From an uncultured Clostridia bacterium (GTDB lineage Bacteria; Bacillota; Clostridia; Christensenellales; UBA1242): a stretch of DNA of 64,000 nt. The notes beneath the pieces are model-generated. The model worked only from the letters and a program-made list of their open reading frames with translations, had not been told where the DNA came from and ran no database searches. Positions 2,426 through 58,470 of this stretch are shown here, piece by piece (the first letter of the stretch is position 1; each line of letters begins with the position of its first letter). The DNA lies in assembly GCA_944362965.1 (NCBI GenBank), contig CALVTR010000002.1, positions 16,145-80,144 of the forward strand. The letters run 5' to 3'. The position numbers were made by a program, and so were the translations under genes.

Positions 2426-2501
2426 TGGAGCTAACGGCGGGGATCGAACCCGCGACCTGTCGATTACGAATCAACTGCTCTACCGACTGAGCCACGTTAG
2501 C
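2426..2501 (-). tRNA. tRNA-Thr (anticodon CGU), CCA encoded
   Basis: Manual cloverleaf: acceptor GCTAACG/CGTTAGC, D arm GCTC/GAGC, anticodon arm GTTGA/TCGAC with loop TTCGTAA, T arm GCGGG-TTCGATC-CCCGC, 76 nt. Confidence 0.9.
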
Positions 2502-4536: not shown

Positions 4537-5760
4537 TTAAACCTTGCTATTCTTTAAAATTATCGCATTTGCGGCGGCGTATGCGGTTGAAAAAGCGGTT
4601 TGAAGATTGTAGCCACCTGTTAAGCAGTCAACGTCAAGCACTTCACCAATAAAGTAAAGGTCTGGCACTTTTTTGCTTTCCATAGTTTTAGGGTTTATCT
4701 CTTTTAAGTCTACACCGCCTGCTGTGACAATGCCGCTTTCAATAGGATAAAGTCCGCTAAATGAAAGTGCAAAATTTTTTAGATTGTAAATTATTTTATT
4801 TCGCTCTGCGACTGTGATTGAGTTGACCTTTTTATGCTTATCAATACCGCAGCAGTTTAAAAATATTTCGGTAAGTCTATGCGGCAAAAGACCTTTTATA
4901 ATATATGAGATATCTTTGTTTAAATTGTCTTTGAAATCGCGTAGGATACGCTCTTCTAACTTTTCGTTTGTAAGAGCTGGTTTAAAATCAAGTGAAAGCT
5001 CTATATCTTTATTATTTCCTATAAAGCTTGAAAGAGATAAGGCTATTGGTCCTGTGATTGCATCATGTGTGAACATCATCTCACCAAAAAGGCTTTTTGT
5101 TTTGCCATTGACTACAGCATTTAGCTGAACATTTTTTAGTGACAAGCCTTCAAGGTTACTGCAAAAACTATCTTTTATCTTGATAGGAACAAGAGCTGCT
5201 GACGGCGTAACCACATTTAAATCAAACATTTTTGCAAATTTATATCCATCGCCGCTGCTGCCTGTTGCACTATAACTTTTTCCACCTGTTGCGACTATAA
5301 CTGCGTCAAATTCATATTTTGACTTTTCTGTTTTTATAGCAAAGTTTGACTTTTTATCTATTGTCACAACCTTTTCATTTAGATGCAAATCTAAAAAATT
5401 GTTATCAATATTTTTTACTAAAGTTTTAGTGACATCGCTCGCCTTATCAGAGCACGGAAAGACCCTGCCGCCACGTTCGGTTTTGAGCGGACAACCTAAA
5501 CTTTCAAAAAATTCAATAGTATCTTGGCTGTCAAATTGGTTTATTGCTGAATACATAAACTTCTGTCCATGCACAACGTTTTTTAAGTATCCATCTTTGT
5601 CGCAGTTGTTTGTTACATTGCACCTGCCCTTGCCTGTGATATATATCTTTTTGCCAAGTTTTTCGTTGCCGTCAAAGATAAAGGTTTCTATTCCTGCCTT
5701 TGTGAGAAGTCCTGCTGCAAAAAGTCCGCTTGCTCCGCCACCTATAACTGCAACTTTCAT
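4537..5760 (-). CDS. NAD(P)/FAD-dependent oxidoreductase, HI0933/YhiN (BaiN-like) family
   Basis: N-terminal MKVAVIGGGASGLFAAG dinucleotide fold. Length 407 aa and the C-terminal GG.NLQ.A motif are typical of the family. Confidence 0.7.
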   Translation of the reverse strand: MKVAVIGGGASGLFAAGLLTKAGIETFIFDGNEKLGKKIYITGKGRCNVTNNCDKDGYLKNVVHGQKFMYSAINQFDSQDTIEFFESLGCPLKTERGGRVFPCSDKASDVTKTLVKNIDNNFLDLHLNEKVVTIDKKSNFAIKTEKSKYEFDAVIVATGGKSYSATGSSGDGYKFAKMFDLNVVTPSAALVPIKIKDSFCSNLEGLSLKNVQLNAVVNGKTKSLFGEMMFTHDAITGPIALSLSSFIGNNKDIELSLDFKPALTNEKLEERILRDFKDNLNKDISYIIKGLLPHRLTEIFLNCCGIDKHKKVNSITVAERNKIIYNLKNFALSFSGLYPIESGIVTAGGVDLKEINPKTMESKKVPDLYFIGEVLDVDCLTGGYNLQTAFSTAYAAANAIILKNSKV

Positions 5761-11883: not shown

Positions 11884-11974
11884 GGCGGCGGAAGGAACGC
11901 AAGTTTTTGCGTTCCCATAATAAAACCGCATGGTTTTATTATGAAATTTTGTTTTCAAAATTTGTTCCGCCGCC
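11884..11974. other. closed four-way-junction structured element, copy A
   Basis: 10-bp closing stem GGCGGCGGAA/TTCCGCCGCC around three abutting perfect hairpins (9, 12 and 8 bp; loops GTTT, GCAT, TTTT). Confidence 0.7.
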
Positions 11975-15999: not shown

Positions 16000-16641
16000 T
16001 TAAATAGGTCCCATAGGAGCAGTGCAAAACATTGCTACTATCGGAGCTACCATCTCTAGCCCAAAAAATATCCAGCCGACCATTTCAACTACCTTGTAAT
16101 TTTCTACTCTGTTATATACTTCGTCAAAGTTCTTTAACACTCCACTTCCGTCATTTATCGTTACAAATTGTTCTACTGTTACAGCTCGCCTAAATTCAAT
16201 TAAATATTGTTCTTCTATCCATTCATACTGTGCTATGTTTATCTCACCATTTTCATACTGATTTCTTGCAGTTACAACAGTGTTTTGATAGAGATTTTTT
16301 AATCTATTCCACTCGTTTTGACTGAGAACAATCTCTTCTGAATTATCCTTGTCGGTCAATACCACTTTGTCTGAATTGTCTTCAACATAATCACATATGG
16401 CATTATTATCACTATATATCTTATGCCCTTCAAAAGCATTTAATTTGTCATCTTCTATATTTCGCAAAACACTTCCTGTTATACCTGCGGTTAGTGGTCC
16501 TAAAGCCAACGCAGCACCAAGTGAACATAACGATACAAAGCCTATTTTGTCTAAAACTGTGCCTATTTTGTTTAAAACTGCTTTTGCTCTCTTTTTTGCC
16601 CGTTCCCTACAAAATTGTTTAAAATATTCGTCTTCTGTCAT
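16000..16641 (-). CDS. hypothetical membrane protein (2 predicted TM segments)
   Basis: 213 aa. AAAGGAG SD 7 nt upstream. TM-like FVSLCSLGAALALGPLTAGITG and GWIFFGLEMVAPIVAMF. Confidence 0.65.
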   Translation of the reverse strand: MTEDEYFKQFCRERAKKRAKAVLNKIGTVLDKIGFVSLCSLGAALALGPLTAGITGSVLRNIEDDKLNAFEGHKIYSDNNAICDYVEDNSDKVVLTDKDNSEEIVLSQNEWNRLKNLYQNTVVTARNQYENGEINIAQYEWIEEQYLIEFRRAVTVEQFVTINDGSGVLKNFDEVYNRVENYKVVEMVGWIFFGLEMVAPIVAMFCTAPMGPI

Positions 16642-23754: not shown

Positions 23755-23871
23755 GAGTGGCTTTGCCGCGAGAAGGCACAAAAGGCTGACGAGCCTTTTA
23801 GAAGGCAAAGACTTTTGCCTTCTTGTGCATTTTTCCCAAAATGCACATGCCTTCTCGCGGTAAAGCCGCTC
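23755..23871. other. closed four-way-junction structured element, copy B
   Basis: 24-bp closing stem (23755-23778 / 23848-23871, two G-T pairs) around hairpins 23780-23799, 23800-23823 and 23824-23847 (8, 10 and 10 bp; loops GACG, GACT, TCCC). An extra hairpin lies at 23874-23895. Confidence 0.7.
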
Positions 23872-23906
23872 GCGATAGACGCTGACGCGTCTATCTTTAT
23901 GCTATT

Positions 23907-23934
23907 AGTATACCCCCCCCGCAAACCACGTCAA
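23907..23934 (-). promoter_or_regulatory. sigma-A-type promoter (TTGACG-16-TATACT) whose spacer contains a G8/C8 homopolymer
   Basis: -35 at 23929-23934, -10 at 23907-23912, C8 tract at 23913-23920 abutting the -10. Confidence 0.55.
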
Positions 23935-24061
23935 GCAAATTTAACAAATTTTTTAAATTTTTTTAAAATTTTTTTGTTTTTGGAGATTTTTATACAATAA
24001 TGCCCAGTTTACTTGACCTAAGTTGGTCACATTTTTCGTATTTTGAGATTTTTTATGCATC

Positions 24062-29905: not shown

Positions 29906-32900
29906 ATGAGAAAGATTTTTAAAATTCTGTCTTATTCACTTTTATATTTGATTATTTCAGTGGCATCAGCTTATGGTGTCATAACTATTTCAATGAATAA
30001 TTACACGAACGAGCAAAATTCAACTAGCTCTGGCGGCTCCACTGAAGAGACTGTTATAGCAGAAGAAATTTCCACAATGATAAGCAATATCACAAACTCT
30101 AGTGCTTTGGGGCTTGAACTTGAGATTGAAATAGGTGCTGATGGGCAAAACTTTGAGATTGGCGTCGACGGCGAAATCGACCTTTCTAATGGTTTTGAGA
30201 ACTTGGCAGTAAATGCTGATATAAATATTGCATTTAGTGAGAATAGCTCTTTTGATATCGGCGTTATATATAAGGATGGCAACCTATATTTTGAACTTTT
30301 GAACAATAAATTCTTTATAGCAACCGACAATTTGATGACTTCACTTAGTCAAGTGTTTGGACTTCTTGGTGTTGAGATGCCTGAGCTTGGCATTGATTTG
30401 GACTCGCTTAGCCTTGACAGCATTCTTGGTATGCTTTCTAACTTTGAAAAAGTGAATGGTGAAGACGGCTTGCTTGTGCTTCAAGTGGCTATTCCTGTTG
30501 TAAATCAAATTGACCTTATCTGCACAACCGACTATACACTAACCGGGCTTAGCCTTCCTAAGACTTCTATTGAAGGTATTGAACTTGCTGTAAACGGCAA
30601 TGTAAGTTACCCTGAGGAAGTTGTAATTGATAGTGTTGACAGTAGTGATTATATTGACCTTACTAATGTTATTGACCTTGCGTGCGGGCTTATTGACTTT
30701 ATCTCTCAAGACCAAATTGGGCTTGAATATAATGTAAGTTATAATGATTTGACGATTGCTGGCCGCATCGACGTTGATTTAAATAATATCTCAGCTAAAA
30801 TTACTCTTGCTCTTGGTGATTTAAATGCAAATATAATATATCAAAATGGCATGCTCTACCTTGAAGCTTACAATATCTATGCTAAGTTTGATATTGGGCA
30901 GATTGGAGATGTTTTGACATTGGCTCAAAAATACTTTGACGTTGAGTTGCCTAATGAGCTGATTGCTAGCATTGTGTCTGCTATTGAAAGTGGTGATTTT
31001 AGCGGAATACTTGACAGTGTTGAGCTGCCTGAAATTGACCTTTCTTCTATCGACCTTTCAATACTTGAAAGCATTGTGAAGAATGGTGACACAACTTCTA
31101 TTACAATCACTGATATTGGCAAAATTGACGTGACTTTAAGTGAAGGCAAAATAGCGTCTATTGGATTTGATGGTTTTGGCGCTATGGTTGATGTTAATGT
31201 TTCTAACTATAGCGGATTTACTCTAACTGCCCCTGCTGAAAGCTATATTGATATTGGATTGCTGCTTCCAACGCTTGATAACGTGCTTGCAATTCTTCAA
31301 AACAACACATTCTCTGGACAGATAAATATTGTCTATGGGGAATATCAATTTGACATTGATTACACTATTCACACGCGTGAAGAAAACAGCTTTATCACTC
31401 TTTCAACTAGTGTGTTTGGGCAAGATATTAAGGTAAATATATTAAATAATAAAGTTTACATTGAAATAAGTGAGACTAAGCTTATTTGTGACCTTAATAA
31501 CCTTGAAAATGTTATTGGTAAAGTGCTTGATGCATTTGGAATTGAATTTGATAGTTCTTCTATAACTAGTGGACTTAAGGACTTAATCAATAGCGAAATC
31601 AATCCACTTTTAATTACAGGTCTTGTTGAAAATGAAAATGGTGTAACTATTGTTTTACTTGATAAACTGGCAATAACTTTAACAAATGGCTCTAGCGAGC
31701 TTAAGATTGATGTAAACTATCAAGACTTGAAGGTTAGCGGCAATGTTATAGGAAGCATACAAGAACTTACAGCCCCAACCATTGATGAAAGTGAGTACTC
31801 ACCTATTGAAGATATCGTTGACAGTGTGATAAATGTATATAACTACGTTTTAGCTAAGACTTTCTATCTAAGTTTTGATGCAAGTTATCAAGATATTGCT
31901 ATAGTTGGTGCGTTAAACTATGATGAAAGCGGGCTTTCTCTTACTGCAACACTGAGCTATCAAAACTTAACTGCAAATGTTATGCTTTCTGAAAACAAAG
32001 TTTACATCACTGCAGAAAACATCAAGCTTGTGTTTGACTTAAATGACATTGATTATGTTAAATCCTTCTTAAATGACTACTTCGGTGTTGATGTTGAAGG
32101 CATGCTTGATGAAATTTTAGGCAAAGTTGGAATTAGTCTTGATAGTAGCAATGATTCTAGCAACTTAATTTCGGACATCTTAAGCGGAATTGACCTTGAG
32201 ACTATCATAAGCGGTGCAAGCTTTAATATCTCATCTGACACAATCACTCTTTCTGCTCTTGATGGACTTAATGTCAATATTGCTCTTGAAGAAAATATGA
32301 TTACAAGTATTTCTCTTAGCTACAATATTTCAAGTGAAGAACAAACTGCGATTTCAGCCAATGTTACAATTGAAAATTCAAAAAATGAATTTTCTATTGT
32401 AAATGAAAGTGAATATATTGATGTTATTGAACTTCTTGATATTGTAAAAGCTCTCATTGACTTTGCAAGTCAAGACCAAATGGCTGTAAATTATCAAGTT
32501 AACTACAATGATGTAGATGTAAATGGAAAAATTGACTTAAATGTTGCAGAGAAATCCGCAAAGATATCAATCAATATAAATGATTTAATGGCAAACATTA
32601 TCTATGAAAGCGGTTCGCTTTATCTTGAAGCTTACAACATCTATGCTAGGTTTGATATTGGGCAGATTGGAGACGTTTTGACCTTGGTTGAAAAATATTT
32701 TGATGTTACACTGCCTAATGAGTTGATTGCTAGCGTTGTATCTGCTATTGAAAGTGGCGATTTTAGTGGAATACTTGATAGCATTGAACTGCCTTCTATT
32801 GACCTTGGCTCTATTGACCTTTCAATACTTGAGAGCATTGTGAAGAATGGTGACACAACTTCTATTACAATCACTGATATTGGCAAGATTGACGTGACTT

Positions 32901-35900
32901 TAAATGAAGGCAAAATAGCGTCTATAGGTTTTGATGGTTTTGGCGCTGTGGTTGATGTTAATGTTTCTAACTATAGCGGATTTACTCTAACTGCCCCTGC
33001 TGAAAGCTATATTGATATTGGATTGCTGCTTCCAACGCTTGATAACGTGCTTGCAATTCTTCAAAACAACACATTCTCTGGACAGATAAATATTGTCTAT
33101 GGGGAATATCAATTTGACATTGATTACACTATTCACACGCGTGAAGAAAACAGCTTTATCACTCTTTCAACTAGTGTGTTTGGGCAAGATATTAAGGTAA
33201 ATATATTAAATAATAAAGTTTACATTGAAATAAGTGAGACTAAGCTTATTTGTGACCTTAATAACCTTGAAAATGTTATTGGTAAAGTGCTTGATGCATT
33301 TGGAATTGAATTTGATAGTTCTTCTATAACTAGTGGACTTAAGGACTTAATCAATAGCGAAATCAACCCACTTTTAATCACAAGCTTTGTTGAAAATGAA
33401 AATGGTTTGACTATAGTTTTACTTGATAAACTTACAATAACTCTCACAAATGGCTCTAGCGAGCTTAAGGTTGATGCAAGTTATCAAGACTTAAAGCTGA
33501 GTGCAAACGTTATTGGAAGTGAGCAAGAGCTTTCTGCTCCAGCCATTGTTGAAAGTGAATACACACCTATTGAAGATATTGTTGACAGTGTGATAAATGT
33601 TTATAACTACGTTTTAGCCAAGACTTTCTATCTAAGTTTTGATGCAAGCTATCAAGATATTGCTATAGTTGGTGCGTTAAATTATGATGAAAGTGGGCTC
33701 TCTCTTACTGCAACACTGAGCTATCAAAGCCTATCTGCAAATGTTATGCTTTATGAAAACAAAGTATATATCACAGCAGAAAATATCAAACTTGTGTTTG
33801 ACTTAAATGACCTTGAATATGTTAAGACATTCTTAAATGACTATTTCGGTGTTGATATTGAAGGCAAGCTTGATGAAATATTAGGCAAAGTTGGAATTAG
33901 TCTTGATAGTAGTGATAGTGGCAATATGATATCTGACATTTTAAGCGGACTTGACCTTGAGGCTATCATAAGTGGTGCAAGTTTCAATATCTCATCTGAT
34001 GCAATCACCCTTTCTGCTCTTGATGGACTTAACGTGAATATTTCCCTTACAGAAAACATGATTGACACAATTAGTGTTGAGTATATGCTTGTAAATGGAG
34101 AAAATAGCTCGCCTATCAGTGCAAATATTAAAGTTGAACAAATCGCAAGTATCTTTAACCCTGTTGGAGATTATACTGATATTACGACTATATTAGACTA
34201 CGTTGGACTGCTTTTAGATTATGTTAGCACAAAACAGATGCAATTTGGCATTGCGGCAAGTTATGGTGATATAAATGTTGAAGGTAAAATTCAACTTGAT
34301 TTAACTTCTCAACTTCTTATGAGTGCTAGTCTAAACTCAAATGACATCGACAACTTTGATATTTCTGCAAATATTGAAGACGGAATGCTCTACTTTGATT
34401 ATAGTGGGCTCTGCTTAAAGATTGATAACAACAACTTTAAAGAGCTTCTCGTTATTGTGCTTGAAGTTCTTGGAATTGATGCAAATAGCATACCTTTCCT
34501 TGAAGATATCGACCTTGACCTTGATTTCTCTCAAATTGAAACTGACATTGCTTCGCTTGAAATAAGCATTGACGACATAGTAAATATCTTGAAAATGGTG
34601 AAGAAAATTGACGTGACAGGAGACAGTCTTGATATTATTCTTGACGGAAAGGCAATCTATAACAATGAAAACGCAAGTGACCTTACAATCTCTCTTATTA
34701 AAGAAAATGGTGCTATTAAGTCTTTGACGCTTTCTAATATATATCTTGATGAAACGCTTGAAACAAAGATTGACGCTACCCTTACTTTTGAAACGCTAAG
34801 TGATTTTGCTTATGTTGATCAAACCAAAAATTATATTGATATTTCAGGCTCTAACGAGCTTATCAAGGCTCTTATCAATATGACAACTGATACTGACTTC
34901 CATGTTCAAGGTTCATTTGATATCTTGGGTTCGCTTGCTGGTATTGATATCTCTTGGAACGTTCCATTTGATATCAAAATCAACGTTGTGGGCAAAGGTG
35001 ACATTGAACTTTATGGCGTGGTTGGAGAAATCCCGACTATGATTGGCGTTAATAACGACGTGCCTTATGAGTTTGGTGATACTGAAAGTGGCTCTGACAG
35101 ATACCTATATATCTACTATAAGGATGGCTATATCTATCTTTATAGAAGTGAAAAAGTTGATATCATGTTTGGCGCTAGCTATAGAACTTATGAAAAGAGC
35201 ACAAAAATTTCAATAGACACCTTCCTTGCTGACCCTATGTATTATATTCAATACTGCTTTGGTTTTACTGACACTATTATGAATGCAATTATTGAGTCTA
35301 TGAACAATCCACGCACGGAGCCGATGGACTTTGGCAACATTATTAAGTCTTTCACTGTTCAAGATAATAAGAACTTCACGATTGACCTTAATATGCATGA
35401 GCTTACAAACAACCCTGACCTTGACAGTCTTATTGTTTCACTTGGAATTGAACAGACTGCTGAGGGAAAGAACTATGTTGGCAAACTGCAACTTAGTCTT
35501 TACATGCCACTTGCTGATATATTCACACTTACCCTATCAACGAGCGATGCTCAAATTGTTGACTATGGAACAGAAGTTGATATGAGCCCACTTTATGACT
35601 TTATTAATAACTATCAATACGCAAGCGAGACAGAGTGGGAAGCAAGCAATGGCAACTGGCAGATGTCTGGGGAAATACTCTATCAAATAAATTTTGAAAC
35701 AAATTGCGACGAGACGCTTGAGTCACAAAGTTATCATTATAAAGATAGTTTAGCTCTGCCAACACTTTCTGACTATGTTGTTGACGATGGGCTTACACAT
35801 AAGAGTTATCACTTTGCGGGTTGGTTTGAAGATGAAACTTTCTTGACACAATTTACAAGTGATACAATGCCTAGAAAAGATATGACCTTATATGCTAAGT

Positions 35901-36892
35901 GGGAAGTCGTAACACAAAACTACTATACAATAACCTTCGTTACTAATAGTGATGATAAAATTGATAGCATAACTAAACTTGAAGGCGAAAGTATAGATAT
36001 ACCTAGCCTTACAACTAAAGAAATTACTGAAAGTAACTTCACTTCTTACTATGAATTTGGTGGCTGGTTTACAACTGAAGATTTTGAAGAAGGGTCGCAA
36101 TTCAACTTAACCGCAATGCCTTCTCAAAATACCACCCTTTATGCTAAGTGGAACTTAATTAGAACTGAGTATACACGCTCAGTAAACGTCTATGATGGCG
36201 ATGAACTTTTGGCTACGCTGCGTGTTAAAGTTGGAGATACAATAGACTTCTCGTCTATAGAAAAGGTCAATGAGACAACTAAGTTCTATCTTGACAAGTC
36301 TTTCACAGCAGAGATGACCGACTTTACAATGCCTAACAATGACCTTGATATCTATATCAGAAATATGTATACACTGACCTTTACAAGTGATTATGGAAAC
36401 ACTGAAACTGTTATAGTGCATCTCTATCAAGGCGAGCAAATAGAAGTTCCTGTTCAAAGTAGTTATGTTTTTGATGACGGGCAAACCGCTAGAATAACAT
36501 ATACTTTCAATGGCTATAATAGCGATATAGTTATGCCAAATCATGATACAACCTATAGTGCAGATTGGACCGTTGATGAAAAACATTATTACACAGTTTC
36601 ATTTGACCTGAGATGGTATCTTGTTATGGGTTGCACAGCTGGTAGCAAGATGAAAAATTCGCCTTCTCCTATTGATTCATTCAAGGTTTTAGAGGGAACA
36701 ACTATTGACTTAACGCAGTATGCTCCAACCTGCACAGCATACTTGACTGCAATTCCAATAGACGCAAAGAACTTTAAAGCAACGTCTTGGGGAACAAGTG
36801 CATGGGGTGACTACACTTCTGGTGGAAGCGGTTTCACAACAATTACTATCACAGGTGACACAACCTTATATGCTTGCTGGGAAAGAGTTTAA
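29906..36892 (+). CDS. 2,328-aa N-terminally anchored surface protein: about nine ~190-aa modules plus five C-terminal Listeria-Bacteroides (Flg_new-type) repeats
   Basis: AAGGAG SD. Signal-anchor ILSYSLLYLIISVASAYGVITI. C-terminal repeats carry F.GWF...MP...LYAKW. Uninterrupted ORF. Confidence 0.85.
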   Translation: MRKIFKILSYSLLYLIISVASAYGVITISMNNYTNEQNSTSSGGSTEETVIAEEISTMISNITNSSALGLELEIEIGADGQNFEIGVDGEIDLSNGFENLAVNADINIAFSENSSFDIGVIYKDGNLYFELLNNKFFIATDNLMTSLSQVFGLLGVEMPELGIDLDSLSLDSILGMLSNFEKVNGEDGLLVLQVAIPVVNQIDLICTTDYTLTGLSLPKTSIEGIELAVNGNVSYPEEVVIDSVDSSDYIDLTNVIDLACGLIDFISQDQIGLEYNVSYNDLTIAGRIDVDLNNISAKITLALGDLNANIIYQNGMLYLEAYNIYAKFDIGQIGDVLTLAQKYFDVELPNELIASIVSAIESGDFSGILDSVELPEIDLSSIDLSILESIVKNGDTTSITITDIGKIDVTLSEGKIASIGFDGFGAMVDVNVSNYSGFTLTAPAESYIDIGLLLPTLDNVLAILQNNTFSGQINIVYGEYQFDIDYTIHTREENSFITLSTSVFGQDIKVNILNNKVYIEISETKLICDLNNLENVIGKVLDAFGIEFDSSSITSGLKDLINSEINPLLITGLVENENGVTIVLLDKLAITLTNGSSELKIDVNYQDLKVSGNVIGSIQELTAPTIDESEYSPIEDIVDSVINVYNYVLAKTFYLSFDASYQDIAIVGALNYDESGLSLTATLSYQNLTANVMLSENKVYITAENIKLVFDLNDIDYVKSFLNDYFGVDVEGMLDEILGKVGISLDSSNDSSNLISDILSGIDLETIISGASFNISSDTITLSALDGLNVNIALEENMITSISLSYNISSEEQTAISANVTIENSKNEFSIVNESEYIDVIELLDIVKALIDFASQDQMAVNYQVNYNDVDVNGKIDLNVAEKSAKISININDLMANIIYESGSLYLEAYNIYARFDIGQIGDVLTLVEKYFDVTLPNELIASVVSAIESGDFSGILDSIELPSIDLGSIDLSILESIVKNGDTTSITITDIGKIDVTLNEGKIASIGFDGFGAVVDVNVSNYSGFTLTAPAESYIDIGLLLPTLDNVLAILQNNTFSGQINIVYGEYQFDIDYTIHTREENSFITLSTSVFGQDIKVNILNNKVYIEISETKLICDLNNLENVIGKVLDAFGIEFDSSSITSGLKDLINSEINPLLITSFVENENGLTIVLLDKLTITLTNGSSELKVDASYQDLKLSANVIGSEQELSAPAIVESEYTPIEDIVDSVINVYNYVLAKTFYLSFDASYQDIAIVGALNYDESGLSLTATLSYQSLSANVMLYENKVYITAENIKLVFDLNDLEYVKTFLNDYFGVDIEGKLDEILGKVGISLDSSDSGNMISDILSGLDLEAIISGASFNISSDAITLSALDGLNVNISLTENMIDTISVEYMLVNGENSSPISANIKVEQIASIFNPVGDYTDITTILDYVGLLLDYVSTKQMQFGIAASYGDINVEGKIQLDLTSQLLMSASLNSNDIDNFDISANIEDGMLYFDYSGLCLKIDNNNFKELLVIVLEVLGIDANSIPFLEDIDLDLDFSQIETDIASLEISIDDIVNILKMVKKIDVTGDSLDIILDGKAIYNNENASDLTISLIKENGAIKSLTLSNIYLDETLETKIDATLTFETLSDFAYVDQTKNYIDISGSNELIKALINMTTDTDFHVQGSFDILGSLAGIDISWNVPFDIKINVVGKGDIELYGVVGEIPTMIGVNNDVPYEFGDTESGSDRYLYIYYKDGYIYLYRSEKVDIMFGASYRTYEKSTKISIDTFLADPMYYIQYCFGFTDTIMNAIIESMNNPRTEPMDFGNIIKSFTVQDNKNFTIDLNMHELTNNPDLDSLIVSLGIEQTAEGKNYVGKLQLSLYMPLADIFTLTLSTSDAQIVDYGTEVDMSPLYDFINNYQYASETEWEASNGNWQMSGEILYQINFETNCDETLESQSYHYKDSLALPTLSDYVVDDGLTHKSYHFAGWFEDETFLTQFTSDTMPRKDMTLYAKWEVVTQNYYTITFVTNSDDKIDSITKLEGESIDIPSLTTKEITESNFTSYYEFGGWFTTEDFEEGSQFNLTAMPSQNTTLYAKWNLIRTEYTRSVNVYDGDELLATLRVKVGDTIDFSSIEKVNETTKFYLDKSFTAEMTDFTMPNNDLDIYIRNMYTLTFTSDYGNTETVIVHLYQGEQIEVPVQSSYVFDDGQTARITYTFNGYNSDIVMPNHDTTYSADWTVDEKHYYTVSFDLRWYLVMGCTAGSKMKNSPSPIDSFKVLEGTTIDLTQYAPTCTAYLTAIPIDAKNFKATSWGTSAWGDYTSGGSGFTTITITGDTTLYACWERV
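30650..34171 (+). repeat. two tandem in-frame repeats of 1,764 and 1,758 bp inside the giant gene
   Basis: Units 30650-32413 and 32414-34171 (aa 249-836 and 837-1422). 31185-31602 is identical to 32949-33366 (418 bp) by direct comparison. Confidence 0.9.
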
Positions 36893-37171: not shown

Positions 37172-37241
37172 TGTTTTCTCCTTTTATATTTATTTTTTAA
37201 TAAATCCGCATGAAAAAACTTGAGCTTTAAATAAAACTTTG

Positions 37242-46795: not shown

Positions 46796-46865
46796 TTATT
46801 ATAAAATAGTATTTTATTTTTAGATTTTACTTAAAAATTTTGAGTTTAGGTTTGATAGTTTAAGT

Positions 46866-47390
46866 TTAGTCTTCGTCGTCATCGTCGTAGTCATAATCGT
46901 CGTCATCATCGTCATCGCTGTCGTCAATATCGTCACTATCTTCGTCGTCATCGTCATCTTCGTCATCGTCTTCGTCGAAGTCTTCATCATCAAAGCTTAT
47001 ATCGTCTTCGTCGTCAGCAAAGTCAATATCAGGCGTGATATCGTCATCATCAAGCAAGCTTGATTTTGTGATGTCATTGACAGATGCCATGTCACCTGTT
47101 TCATCATCCATAGTCATAACATCGTCATTATCGTCGCGGACAATATAATCTTCCCAATCAGAGTTGAGTTCGCCGTCTTCATTTTGATGCTCCTTAAGGC
47201 AGCTTGCACACATGATTTCGTCTGGTTGAATATAGTTTGTTTTGCAAATTGGGCAAAGCTCTAGGTCTATATCGTCAACATAATCCTTCTTTGCTTCCAT
47301 TTCTGCTTTGCAAACAGAACAATATTTATCCTTTTTTTGTATATAGTTTAGTTCACATCTAGGACATCTAATATAAACTGGTTTTTTCAT
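46866..47390 (-). CDS. double zinc-ribbon protein with about 100-aa poly-Asp/Glu tail
   Basis: CPRCELNYIQ...CSVC and CPICKTNYIQ...CASC. The C-terminal third is almost entirely D/E. AAGGAGAG SD. Confidence 0.75.
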   Translation of the reverse strand: MKKPVYIRCPRCELNYIQKKDKYCSVCKAEMEAKKDYVDDIDLELCPICKTNYIQPDEIMCASCLKEHQNEDGELNSDWEDYIVRDDNDDVMTMDDETGDMASVNDITKSSLLDDDDITPDIDFADDEDDISFDDEDFDEDDDEDDDDDEDSDDIDDSDDDDDDDYDYDDDDED

Positions 47391-52807: not shown

Positions 52808-52899
52808 GCTGCTCGGAAATGCCACTTTGAAAAAGTGGCAAAAGTTGCCTGAAGGGCAACTTTTTAAAATTTTAAATTAAAATTTTATTTCCGAGCAGC
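52808..52899. other. closed four-way-junction structured element, copy C
   Basis: 13-bp closing stem GCTGCTCGGAAAT/ATTTCCGAGCAGC around hairpins 52821-52839, 52840-52864 and 52866-52886 (8, 10 and 8-9 bp). Confidence 0.7.
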
Positions 52900-57187: not shown

Positions 57188-57266
57188 TGTTTTATTATAC
57201 AATAATATTTTGTAAAAGACAAACAAAGTGCTTTACTTTAAGACAAAATTTTATTAAAATCTTAGT

Positions 57267-57710
57267 ATGATAGATTTTATGGAAGAAGCAATTAAACAGG
57301 CAGAGATTGCCTTAAAGCACGATGAAGTGCCTATTGGTGCGGTGATTGTTAAAGACGGCAAAGTTATTGCAAAAGGATACAACAAAAGAGAAAAGACTCA
57401 AAATGCGCTGATGCATGCTGAGATTATCGCAATAAAAAAAGCCTGCCGAAAACTTAAATCCTGGCGACTTGATGGTTGCACTATTTTTGTGACGCTTGAG
57501 CCCTGCCCTATGTGCAGCGGAGCTATTGCAAATGCTAGAATTGCCCGTCTTGTTTATGCCTGCAAAGAAAAATCGTCTGGAGACAGCCTTTGTGAGAAGA
57601 TACTTTCAAGTACGCGGCTAAACCACAAAGTTGAAATTATTTATGATGAAAAGTATAGCGAAAAATGCAGCAGGATTTTAAGCGAATTTTTTAAAGGCAA
57701 GAGAAAATAA
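57267..57710 (+). CDS. tadA: tRNA-specific adenosine deaminase
   Basis: HAEIIAI and PCPMCSGA zinc motifs. The start could also be the Met at 57279. Confidence 0.85.
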   Translation: MIDFMEEAIKQAEIALKHDEVPIGAVIVKDGKVIAKGYNKREKTQNALMHAEIIAIKKACRKLKSWRLDGCTIFVTLEPCPMCSGAIANARIARLVYACKEKSSGDSLCEKILSSTRLNHKVEIIYDEKYSEKCSRILSEFFKGKRK

Positions 57711-57856
57711 ATTTTTAAATTTAATTATTTTTTAAATTTTTATTTTATTTTTACAATTTATTTTTATCTTTATTTATTTATATCCTTTATTTTTTATTTA
57801 GTTATATTTAATAATATTTTTTTATTTATATTTTTTAATAAAACCGCATGAAAAAA

Positions 57857-57941
57857 GCTCGGAAACGCATGCCATAGGCTTGCAAAAAGAAAGTTTCTAC
57901 TTTCTTTTTAAAAAATTGATTTATCAATTTTTGTTTCCGAG
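57857..57941. other. closed four-way-junction structured element, copy D
   Basis: 10-bp closing stem GCTCGGAAAC/GTTTCCGAGC around hairpins 57867-57883, 57884-57909 and 57910-57931 (7 bp with one T-T, 11 bp, 9 bp), with zero junction nucleotides. Confidence 0.7.
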
Positions 57942-57984
57942 CAATTTATAAAAAACAATATTTTTTAGCGACTATTTAAATTTA

Positions 57985-58470
57985 TTATAAGAGTTTCATA
58001 AGCTCTTCATTGTATTCTTCTTCGCTTATTTTGTCTTCCGCTCTCATCTTCTTAAGGCGAGCTATTTTTTCTGTTTTTGTTTCATTTATAATCTCAACAT
58101 TGTCGCCCACCTTGACAGATTTTTCCTTATCAGGCTTTATCCACACCCAATCTGAAATAAACATTGTAATTATTAGAAGAACACTTGAAACAGAAAGTAG
58201 GTTTACAATAATTGATATCACAAGAGCTGTCATATAATAGCCATGGCGTTGGCGAAAGAGTTTTCCGTTCTTCCATATAGCCATGATAAGAAGCACGGCA
58301 ACCGCTAAGCAACAAGCGATTGTTATAAAATCATAGACTACATAAAAAACTGGACTACGAACAGCTGAGTCTGTTCTAAACCAATCTACTAATGAATAAA
58401 TTTCCCATGCGACGTCTACAAAATTAAATATTATAGCCACAATTATAAGCCACTTTTTTGTTGTGTTCAT
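57985..58470 (-). CDS. membrane protein with C-terminal SHOCT domain
   Basis: Start at MNTTKKW (AAGGAG SD). 4 TM segments. C-terminal KISEEEYNEELMKLL SHOCT-like tail. Confidence 0.65.
   Translation of the reverse strand: MNTTKKWLIIVAIIFNFVDVAWEIYSLVDWFRTDSAVRSPVFYVVYDFITIACCLAVAVLLIMAIWKNGKLFRQRHGYYMTALVISIIVNLLSVSSVLLIITMFISDWVWIKPDKEKSVKVGDNVEIINETKTEKIARLKKMRAEDKISEEEYNEELMKLL

Follow-up and report, generated by a model that had tools for sequence, protein, structure and literature searches.

A dispersed family of intergenic four-way-junction palindromes in a small-genome Clostridia lineage, described from its copy between tadA and a SHOCT-domain gene

The element at the convergent tadA and SHOCT genes

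The window analysed here is a stretch of 64,000 nucleotides from contig 2 of an uncultured gut Clostridia bacterium (contig positions 16,145 to 80,144; the source genome is called G000 below, and positions such as C2:28028 refer to its contigs). In this window, a tadA gene and a gene for a SHOCT-domain membrane protein converge on a 274-nt spacer that contains a single stable structure, which we call copy D; no other stable hairpin was found in the spacer. The gene context is the one originally predicted: tadA homologues at the locus carry PF00383/PF14437, and the SHOCT protein has homologues of 156-166 aa, many of them with PF09851. The features used in the text are the following.

57267-57710, plus strand: tadA, of the tRNA adenosine deaminase type (147 aa), with 146 nt between its stop codon and the junction
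57711-57828, plus strand: T-rich, A+T-only spacer without stable structure
57829-57856, plus strand: 28-nt flank common to copy E, with the core box ATAAAACCGCATGAA at 57838-57852, followed by A6 (T6 on the minus strand)
57857-57866: closing stem, 5' arm GCTCGGAAAC, in RNA and DNA folds
57867-57883: hairpin 1, G+C-rich, GCATGCC ATA GGCTTGC, 7 pairs with one T-T mismatch
57884-57909: hairpin 2, AAAAAGAAAGT TTCT ACTTTCTTTTT, 11 pairs, in the RNA fold
57910: junction base A, unpaired, between hairpins 2 and 3
57911-57932: hairpin 3, AAAAATTGA TTTA TCAATTTTT, 9 pairs, A+T-only, in RNA and DNA folds
57933-57942: closing stem, 3' arm GTTTCCGAGC, in RNA and DNA folds
57985-58470, minus strand: gene for a SHOCT-domain membrane protein (161 aa), with 42 nt between its stop and the junction
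37191-37218, plus strand: flank of copy E in the minD-minE spacer, with the junction 50 nt further on and the minE start about 20 nt downstream on the minus strand

Copy D (57857-57942, 86 bases) folds into an almost perfect cross of four helices. When 57829-57960 is folded as RNA with RNAfold, the minimum free energy structure and the centroid alike contain a 10-bp closing stem, five of whose pairs are G-C, around three abutting hairpins, at -39.8 kcal/mol compared with a shuffle mean of -17.0 (z = -7.4; none of 200 shuffles was as good). The minus strand has an identical topology (z = -6.4), and 57857-57942 folded with DNA parameters reaches z = -9.1. Because the closing stem surrounds exactly three abutting hairpins, either strand can fold into a four-way junction (4WJ). 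Hairpins 1 and 2 came out as they had been described from the sequence, and so did the length of the closing stem and its 5' arm; the 3' arm is 57933-57942, not 57932-57941, and hairpin 3, with the expected nine pairs and TTTA loop, spans 57911-57932, not 57910-57931. These two corrections leave A57910 unpaired, so that the junction, first described as lacking linkers, has one. Hairpin 2 consists of an A-run, a short stem and a T-run (A5-stem-T5), a layout that resembles a bidirectional terminator, agrees with the plain terminators of relatives and is the usual one for hairpin 2 in the subfamily of copy D; its core, with just two G-C pairs, is weak for an intrinsic terminator. The tract at 57711-57828 has weak BLAST matches to many other spacers, and similar low-complexity tracts occupy the tadA-SHOCT spacer in related lineages.

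The neighbouring genes show a distinct pattern of polymorphism. Compared with L058, and also with L064, strains that are otherwise ~99% identical, the window has patches of 11-13% nucleotide divergence at 57241-57675 and 58063-58245; the patch in tadA ends 35 nt from the spacer and the one in the SHOCT gene 78 nt from it, and the 387 nt between them are identical. They resemble tracts of recombination that ended where the spacer of the donor was not homologous; patches that stop before the spacer would be expected from such donors. Elsewhere in the window, a 2328-aa open reading frame (29906-36892) has long internal repeats (300 nt, 86% identity, 1764 nt spacing), and a GTC/ATC-rich repeat of irregular period (46858-47048, successive copies 9-21 nt apart) would encode an Asp/Glu-rich tract on the minus strand, as inferred without translation. 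An exact 38-nt direct repeat is present at 2227-2264 and 2419-2456, with the copies 192 nt apart; one of them is the 3' end of tRNA-Thr(CGT) (2426-2501, minus strand), and the other is a lone fragment that resembles the scar of an integration at the tRNA.

A family defined by its topology

Copy D belongs, with near certainty, to a dispersed family of 4WJ elements. We used a scanner based on structure only (minimum of 8 bp for the closing stem and 6 bp for the hairpins, which must abut within 2 nt), which found 83 closures with exactly three hairpins in the 1.37-Mb genome vs 1-3 in three local shuffles. Closures with two hairpins are not enriched (20 vs 13-18 in shuffles), and those with four are rare (2). 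According to crude gene calls, 72 of the 83 three-hairpin elements are intergenic, in a genome that is 85% coding, and copies are found in co-directional, convergent and divergent spacers and in mRNA leaders, roughly in proportion to spacer length. Closing stems measure 8-32 bp, which means that terminal inverted repeats are present, the units span 85-130 nt, and the family occupies about 0.6% of the genome.

Closing stems define subfamilies (GCGAAT-type, GAGAAGGCA-type and "CGGAAA" type) that share little sequence with each other, and near-identical copies occur inside them. Copy D is of the "CGGAAA" type, with its hairpins in the order G+C-rich, AAAGAAAG-type and AAAATTTT-type. This subfamily has a recognisable consensus, in which hairpin 2 reads AAAGAAAG(C)...(G)CTTTCTTT and AAAATTTT abounds in hairpin 3, and one member was found in genome G010. 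The density of elements is ~6 per 100 kb in G000, 1-1.5 per 100 kb in G010 and G075, and nil in 400 kb of G005, the values for these three relatives coming from the structure scanner applied to pieces of their genomes; the inner hairpins of the subfamily could not be aligned by MAFFT.

No known family accounts for these elements. In Rfam, the only match in the whole window is the tRNA at 2429-2501, and in a permissive scan of 57700-58000 the best score was 16 bits, compared with gathering thresholds of 50-95. Phage and plasmid collections gave nothing meaningful, and a search of the full-text literature found no description of such elements. A family defined by this topology, a closing stem with exactly three hairpins, is absent from Rfam and from the literature searched.

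Orthologous copies and the history of the spacer

Of two same-species strains that come from other samples, L058 has an identical 274-nt spacer, and that of L064 has one uncompensated change in hairpin 3. A sister species, with ~83% nucleotide identity over 20 kb and a SHOCT protein 87% identical, has a 4WJ at the tadA-SHOCT site. In this ortholog of copy D, both bases have been replaced in five pairs, no pair is disrupted, and the three loops all differ: the innermost closing pair went from C-G to T-A, the top pair of hairpin 2 from T-A to C-G, and one pair of hairpin 1 and two of hairpin 3 also changed on both sides. In addition, the T-T mismatch of hairpin 1 is a pair in the sister species, and its hairpin 3 has a longer stem. 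The comparison indicates that the element has resided in this spacer since before the two species split, with its pairing kept through both-sided changes.

Over all, the content of the spacer varies by lineage: it may be D-type, one of two other 4WJ types, or none. Among lineages whose SHOCT protein is 72-78% identical, one has an unrelated 4WJ, one has two tandem copies of another subfamily, and three have no element. More distant species of the genus with convergent tadA and SHOCT genes have a spacer of 15-93 nt with a plain A-run/hairpin/T-run terminator, e.g., AAAAACGGCTGAATCTCAGTCGTTTTT or AAAAAGAATTGTTCACAATTCTTTTT. Orthologs in one clade, together with varied content elsewhere, show an element long kept in a spacer where such elements come and go. 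In G010 (L003), the spacer has 525 nt, made of tandem TTTTCGTTGAT / TTTTGT units without a 4WJ, and a T-run comes after its small hairpin, ATGCGG-N9-CCGCAT.

Elsewhere in the 20-kb syntenic block, other copies show further kinds of change. Copy C (window 52808-52899) has its three hairpins in the opposite order to those of its sister-species counterpart (L119, reverse strand, 4775-4871), and the closing stem has diverged; its core has flipped between the closing arms across species. The element at C2:82935, also in this block, is ~90% identical between the two species, with compensated changes, and its immediate flanks align poorly. At C2:80790, both species have the outer closing stem CCCAAGAGC with different cores. 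To these cases, copy D adds an ortholog with five both-sided pair changes and a site where relatives hold an ordinary terminator.

A conserved box on one side of some elements

The 28-nt flank of copy D matches that of copy E at 27 of 28 positions, as had been noticed before; nothing else in the window matches it at three or fewer mismatches, and shuffles give an expectation of 0. Likewise, the 14-mer AATAAAACCGCATG does lie in hairpin 2 of copy A (C2:28028-28118, window 11884-11974). It had been suspected that the flank might prove to be a common A+T-rich, low-complexity string, and this is not the case: the whole genome contains 4 occurrences of the 28-mer at five or fewer mismatches. The conserved part is a 15-base box, ATAAAWCCGCATGAA, which is one-sided and accompanies a subset of the elements only. 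Among its about ten non-coding copies, variants lie 0-50 nt before six 4WJs, where they read toward the junction.

Box with 4WJ: copy D, copy E, C2:146845, C2:115328, C12:36258, C8:24505
Free box: C11:341, C11:430, C11:510, C6:40352

Variant forms are ATAAAWCCGCWTGARAA and, at C2:115328, TACCGCATGAGAAA. The association of 6 of 10 boxes with a 4WJ has a binomial P of about 2e-7 (hand calculation, taking ~83x75x2 qualifying among ~373,000 intergenic strand-positions, such that ~3% lie within 75 nt upstream of a junction), and a G+C-rich hairpin adjoins the box in five of the six composites. In the sister species, the core of the box is unchanged or almost so, reading ATAAATCCGCATGAA at copy D and TTAATAAATCCGCATGAAA at copy E, and the neighbouring spacer has diverged. 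A more distant lineage has kept the copy E junction, compact and canonical, and does not have the CCGCATG core. Of 166 flanks, 11 have the looser pattern GC[AGT][TG]GA[AG]A oriented toward the element and 1 has it in the opposite orientation, with a background of 0.4%; because the pattern was defined after seeing the data, only the asymmetry counts as evidence. Elsewhere in the genus, matches to the box pattern fall mostly in the coding sequence of recR, so we discarded genus-wide conservation and regard the intergenic box as confined to G000 and the sister species.

Several functions for the box were considered and rejected. A sigma-70 promoter on the minus strand (TTTCAT-17-TAnnnn) fits some copies, and its spacing breaks in the sister-species copy E, in C8 and in C11; on the plus strand, TTGAAA as a -35 has no -10. 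A leader peptide starting at the ATG or TTG of the box would have no ribosome-binding site, and the peptides are not conserved. An origin as the eroded outer arm of a longer closing stem, which is true at C2:105717 and C3:53612 and in none of the six composites, was rejected for copy D. That the box is the remnant half of an old terminator hairpin is unlikely: ATGCGG...CCGCAT hairpins do exist in G010, G049 and G060, but no partner arm was found beyond any junction. The box is most likely a protein recognition site that travels with the element.

Comparison with REP and MITE families, and the question of mobility

Dispersed palindromic repeats such as REP, BIME and MITEs are already known. The REP/BIME repeats (REPINs) of Enterobacteria and Pseudomonas resemble the 4WJ elements in being high-copy intergenic palindromes kept as structures (here 83 copies, 72 of them intergenic) with a short conserved sequence on one side; some REP/BIME copies act at transcript 3' ends, and BIMEs combine palindromes with a protein-binding box. 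They differ in several respects. First, a REP is a single imperfect hairpin of 20-40 nt with a shared sequence, whereas the 4WJ elements are nested palindromes of 85-130 nt with three inner hairpins. Second, the 5' GTAG-type tetranucleotide is family-wide in REP, whereas here the box is present in a subset only and subfamilies have little sequence in common. Third, we found no RAYT (Y1 transposase) gene of the REP-RAYT kind, and the host is a Clostridia lineage with a small genome. MITE-like repeats, such as Correia/NEMIS in Neisseria, bcr1 in B. cereus, and the pneumococcal BOX and RUP, also have terminal inverted repeats (here the closing stem), a stable fold, a presence that varies between lineages, and positions in leaders or after genes. 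For the elements described here, no consistent target-site duplication was seen in the flanks, nor any parent insertion sequence (profiles searched: PF01797 and PF00589); in contrast to such repeats, they diverge by compensated changes under one topology, and their cores flip or swap inside conserved closing stems. The family thus seems to be a new variant of dispersed intergenic palindromic repeat, a member of neither the REP nor the MITE class.

These likenesses raise the possibility, which we consider unlikely, that the elements are non-autonomous mobile elements of the MITE or REP kind, in which the closing stem is the terminal inverted repeat and any effect on transcription is incidental. 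Such mobility would fit the near-identical copies inside subfamilies, the uneven density among genomes, the flipping and swapping of cores inside conserved closing stems, and the three unrelated 4WJ subfamilies that occupy the tadA-SHOCT spacer in three lineages, when others have none. A 5' box on one side of a palindrome is reminiscent of the way REP combines GTAG with a hairpin, and the genome encodes seven tyrosine recombinases (PF00589 search) and one HUH Rep. If the elements were mobile, the box could be the recognition or guide site of an enzyme acting in trans (a HUH nuclease or a tyrosine recombinase); we hold this joint proposal to be just as unlikely. Several results argue against mobility. 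No RAYT (PF01797) matched in G000, which is 98% complete, when control genomes did match. No consistent direct repeat that would mark a target-site duplication is visible in the flanks of the copies (copy D lies between AAAAAA and AATTTA), among which no pair of filled and empty sites was close enough to align. The elements persist at orthologous sites over ~17% nucleotide divergence, with changes that preserve structure. The sole HUH Rep is part of a prophage-like ssDNA element that has an origin of its own, TAGTATTAC, and TAGTATAC, which occurs near other subfamilies, proved to be the -10 box of a promoter that is itself repeated.

A related proposal, rather improbable in our opinion, is that the box and the 4WJ together form the site of an unrecognised DNA transaction, in which the element, as a mimic of a Holliday junction, would be bound, flipped and exchanged by a structure-specific enzyme. 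With the same reserve, and only jointly with that proposal, one of the seven tyrosine recombinases or a HUH nuclease might be the enzyme, and the box its address. If this were true, the elements would be a new recombining or mobile module instead of a passive palindrome, and the presence of exactly three hairpins, the inversion and swapping of cores and the conservation of the box would be explained together.

The Rep region and two other features were recorded along the way. On contig 6 (39035-41738, L120), a CRESS-type Rep (Viral_Rep HUH domain and SF3 helicase) adjoins a Zot-like ATPase, and upstream of it are TTGACGC iterons and an origin hairpin with the loop TAGTATTAC (C6:40261); the region is an inovirus-like ssDNA element that has integrated. 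At ~100 nt from this origin there is one copy of the CCGCATGA box, which is the single exception to our rejection of a link between the 4WJs and the Rep: next to the GAAGGCA and GCGAAT subfamilies, the TAGTATAC strings represent the -10 of a repeated poly-C promoter and not nick sites. The repeated module, GCGAAGCCGCTCGCGATAGCCGCTTGACGCGTCTATCTTTATGCTATTAGTATACCCCCCCC, is present at about 20 sites in G000, ~50 nt from 4WJs of these two subfamilies, e.g., at C2:80887-80960 (just past the end of the window) and C2:40012-40080 (window 23868-23936). On the other strand, it reads as a TTGACG...TATACT promoter with a poly-G tract in its spacer, and the variable length of this tract makes it a candidate phase-variable promoter. 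Finally, contig 11 (1-1273, L121) starts in the end of a gene with an Asn/Gly-rich C-terminus, 88% identical to the end of contig 23 with the differences clustered in one stretch, and continues with an A+T-rich region containing three box copies and then a reverse-transcriptase fragment (RVT_1) with a GxxxSQ motif. This looks like a diversity-generating retroelement, decayed or still active, in whose variable region the assembly was interrupted.

Pairing at the level of DNA or of RNA

The 83 copies comprise 3558 stem pairs, with 103 mismatches that divide into 22 G-T, 21 A-C and 60 others. Where neighbours are co-directional, the mismatches counted on the sense strand are 8 G-U vs 14 A-C. By these counts, the stems have no RNA-type wobble signature, and the lack of a G·U bias, together with the flipped core of copy C, favours palindromes that are kept at the DNA level or that have a strand-indifferent role.

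Could the elements nevertheless act purely as RNA, through a 4WJ in the transcript that would stop exonucleases moving 3' to 5' or fix a processing site? In 6 of 6 box composites, transcription of a gene runs toward the junction side, which gives the transcript order junction, U-run, box; in co-directional spacers, the subfamily of copy D shows an orientation bias of 13:4-5 relative to transcription; and E. coli REP elements are known to stabilise upstream mRNA. Against such a role are the mismatches, since G-U does not exceed A-C on the sense strand, the core of copy C, which was reversed between species with nothing lost, and the copies in divergent spacers, which transcription from either flanking gene does not reach. 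We judge a role in RNA alone to be doubtful, and equally doubtful the accompanying suggestion that UUCAUGCGGAUUUAU, the box on the minus strand, would be an mRNA cleavage or protein-binding site.

Copy D as a possible stop between converging transcripts

It had been suggested that copy D might terminate the SHOCT gene, because the element is followed on the minus strand by TTTTTT. The T-run is there, 42 nt and not 44 nt from the stop of the gene at 57985-58470, and the stem with its T6, the lack of any other hairpin in the spacer and the plain bidirectional terminator of relatives agree with termination. The suggestion is only partly borne out, since the sister species has CCCTATTC in place of the T6 run beside a conserved closing stem, i.e., the U-run was not conserved with the stem. 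A simple terminator scan did not call copy D. Across the family, a T-run follows the closing stem in 11 of 72 intergenic copies and faces an incoming gene in 7 of 72, and copies are also found in divergent spacers and mRNA leaders; termination cannot therefore be the general function of the family. Compared with bidirectional intrinsic (Rho-independent) terminators, copy D is alike in its position between convergent genes, in the A5-stem-T5 layout of hairpin 2 and in the stem with T6 on the minus strand; it differs in being a branched structure of four helices, not one hairpin, in a T-run that the sister species has not conserved, and in belonging to a family most of whose members have no T-run. 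Given that relatives hold a plain bidirectional terminator at this very site, copy D is most likely a stop or insulator and a structure protecting 3' ends; that it works as local stop and insulator between the converging transcripts has, we estimate, roughly even odds.

The other function originally considered, a 3' UTR element of tadA, is not supported: copy D belongs to a dispersed family that occupies spacers of every type, which also means that no control element designed for tadA and the SHOCT gene is at hand. A regulator specific to these genes, be it a riboswitch, an sRNA gene or a 3' UTR control element, would account for a strong structure adjoining both of them and for the short reading frames opened by the ATG of the box. 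We think it very improbable, because 83 copies lie beside unrelated genes, the tadA-SHOCT spacer of other lineages has unrelated 4WJs or none, Rfam has no match, the short peptides lack both conservation and a ribosome-binding site, and no convincing sigma-70 promoter, the spacing of which differs in the sister species, is kept at the box. As for chance, hairpins 2 and 3 are A/T-run palindromes in a genome with 34% G+C, and the scanner does yield A+T-only false positives (e.g., in genome G005), but the z-scores of -7.4 to -9.1 with none of 200 shuffles equal, the flank matches for which 0 are expected, the 83 copies vs 1-3 in shuffles and the compensated sister-species ortholog make an origin from A+T-rich, low-complexity sequence a negligible prospect, ruled out by these controls.

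A proposed strand-neutral structural module and what it would mean

We consider it probable that copy D is a resident of a family of ~90-nt intergenic DNA palindromes, that it likely serves as a stop or insulator at this locus, and that its box is a putative recognition site. This account would involve 1) an element kept as a structural module at the DNA level or without regard to strand; 2) maintenance of the module through selection acting on its fold or through palindromes being corrected from arm to arm, two routes that compensatory change by itself does not separate; 3) at copy D, a hairpin 2 (A5-stem-T5) that would act in both directions and a closing stem with T6 that would act for the SHOCT gene; and 4) a box that would be a protein recognition site accompanying the element.

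Since the species split, the topology has been kept by compensated change, while the sequence, the order of hairpins and whole cores turned over. That such elements take up ~0.6% of a very small genome with little spare DNA suggests that they are either useful or very good at persisting. The conserved one-sided box gives experimenters a handle: it is likely a protein-binding site, with which one may find what acts on the elements.
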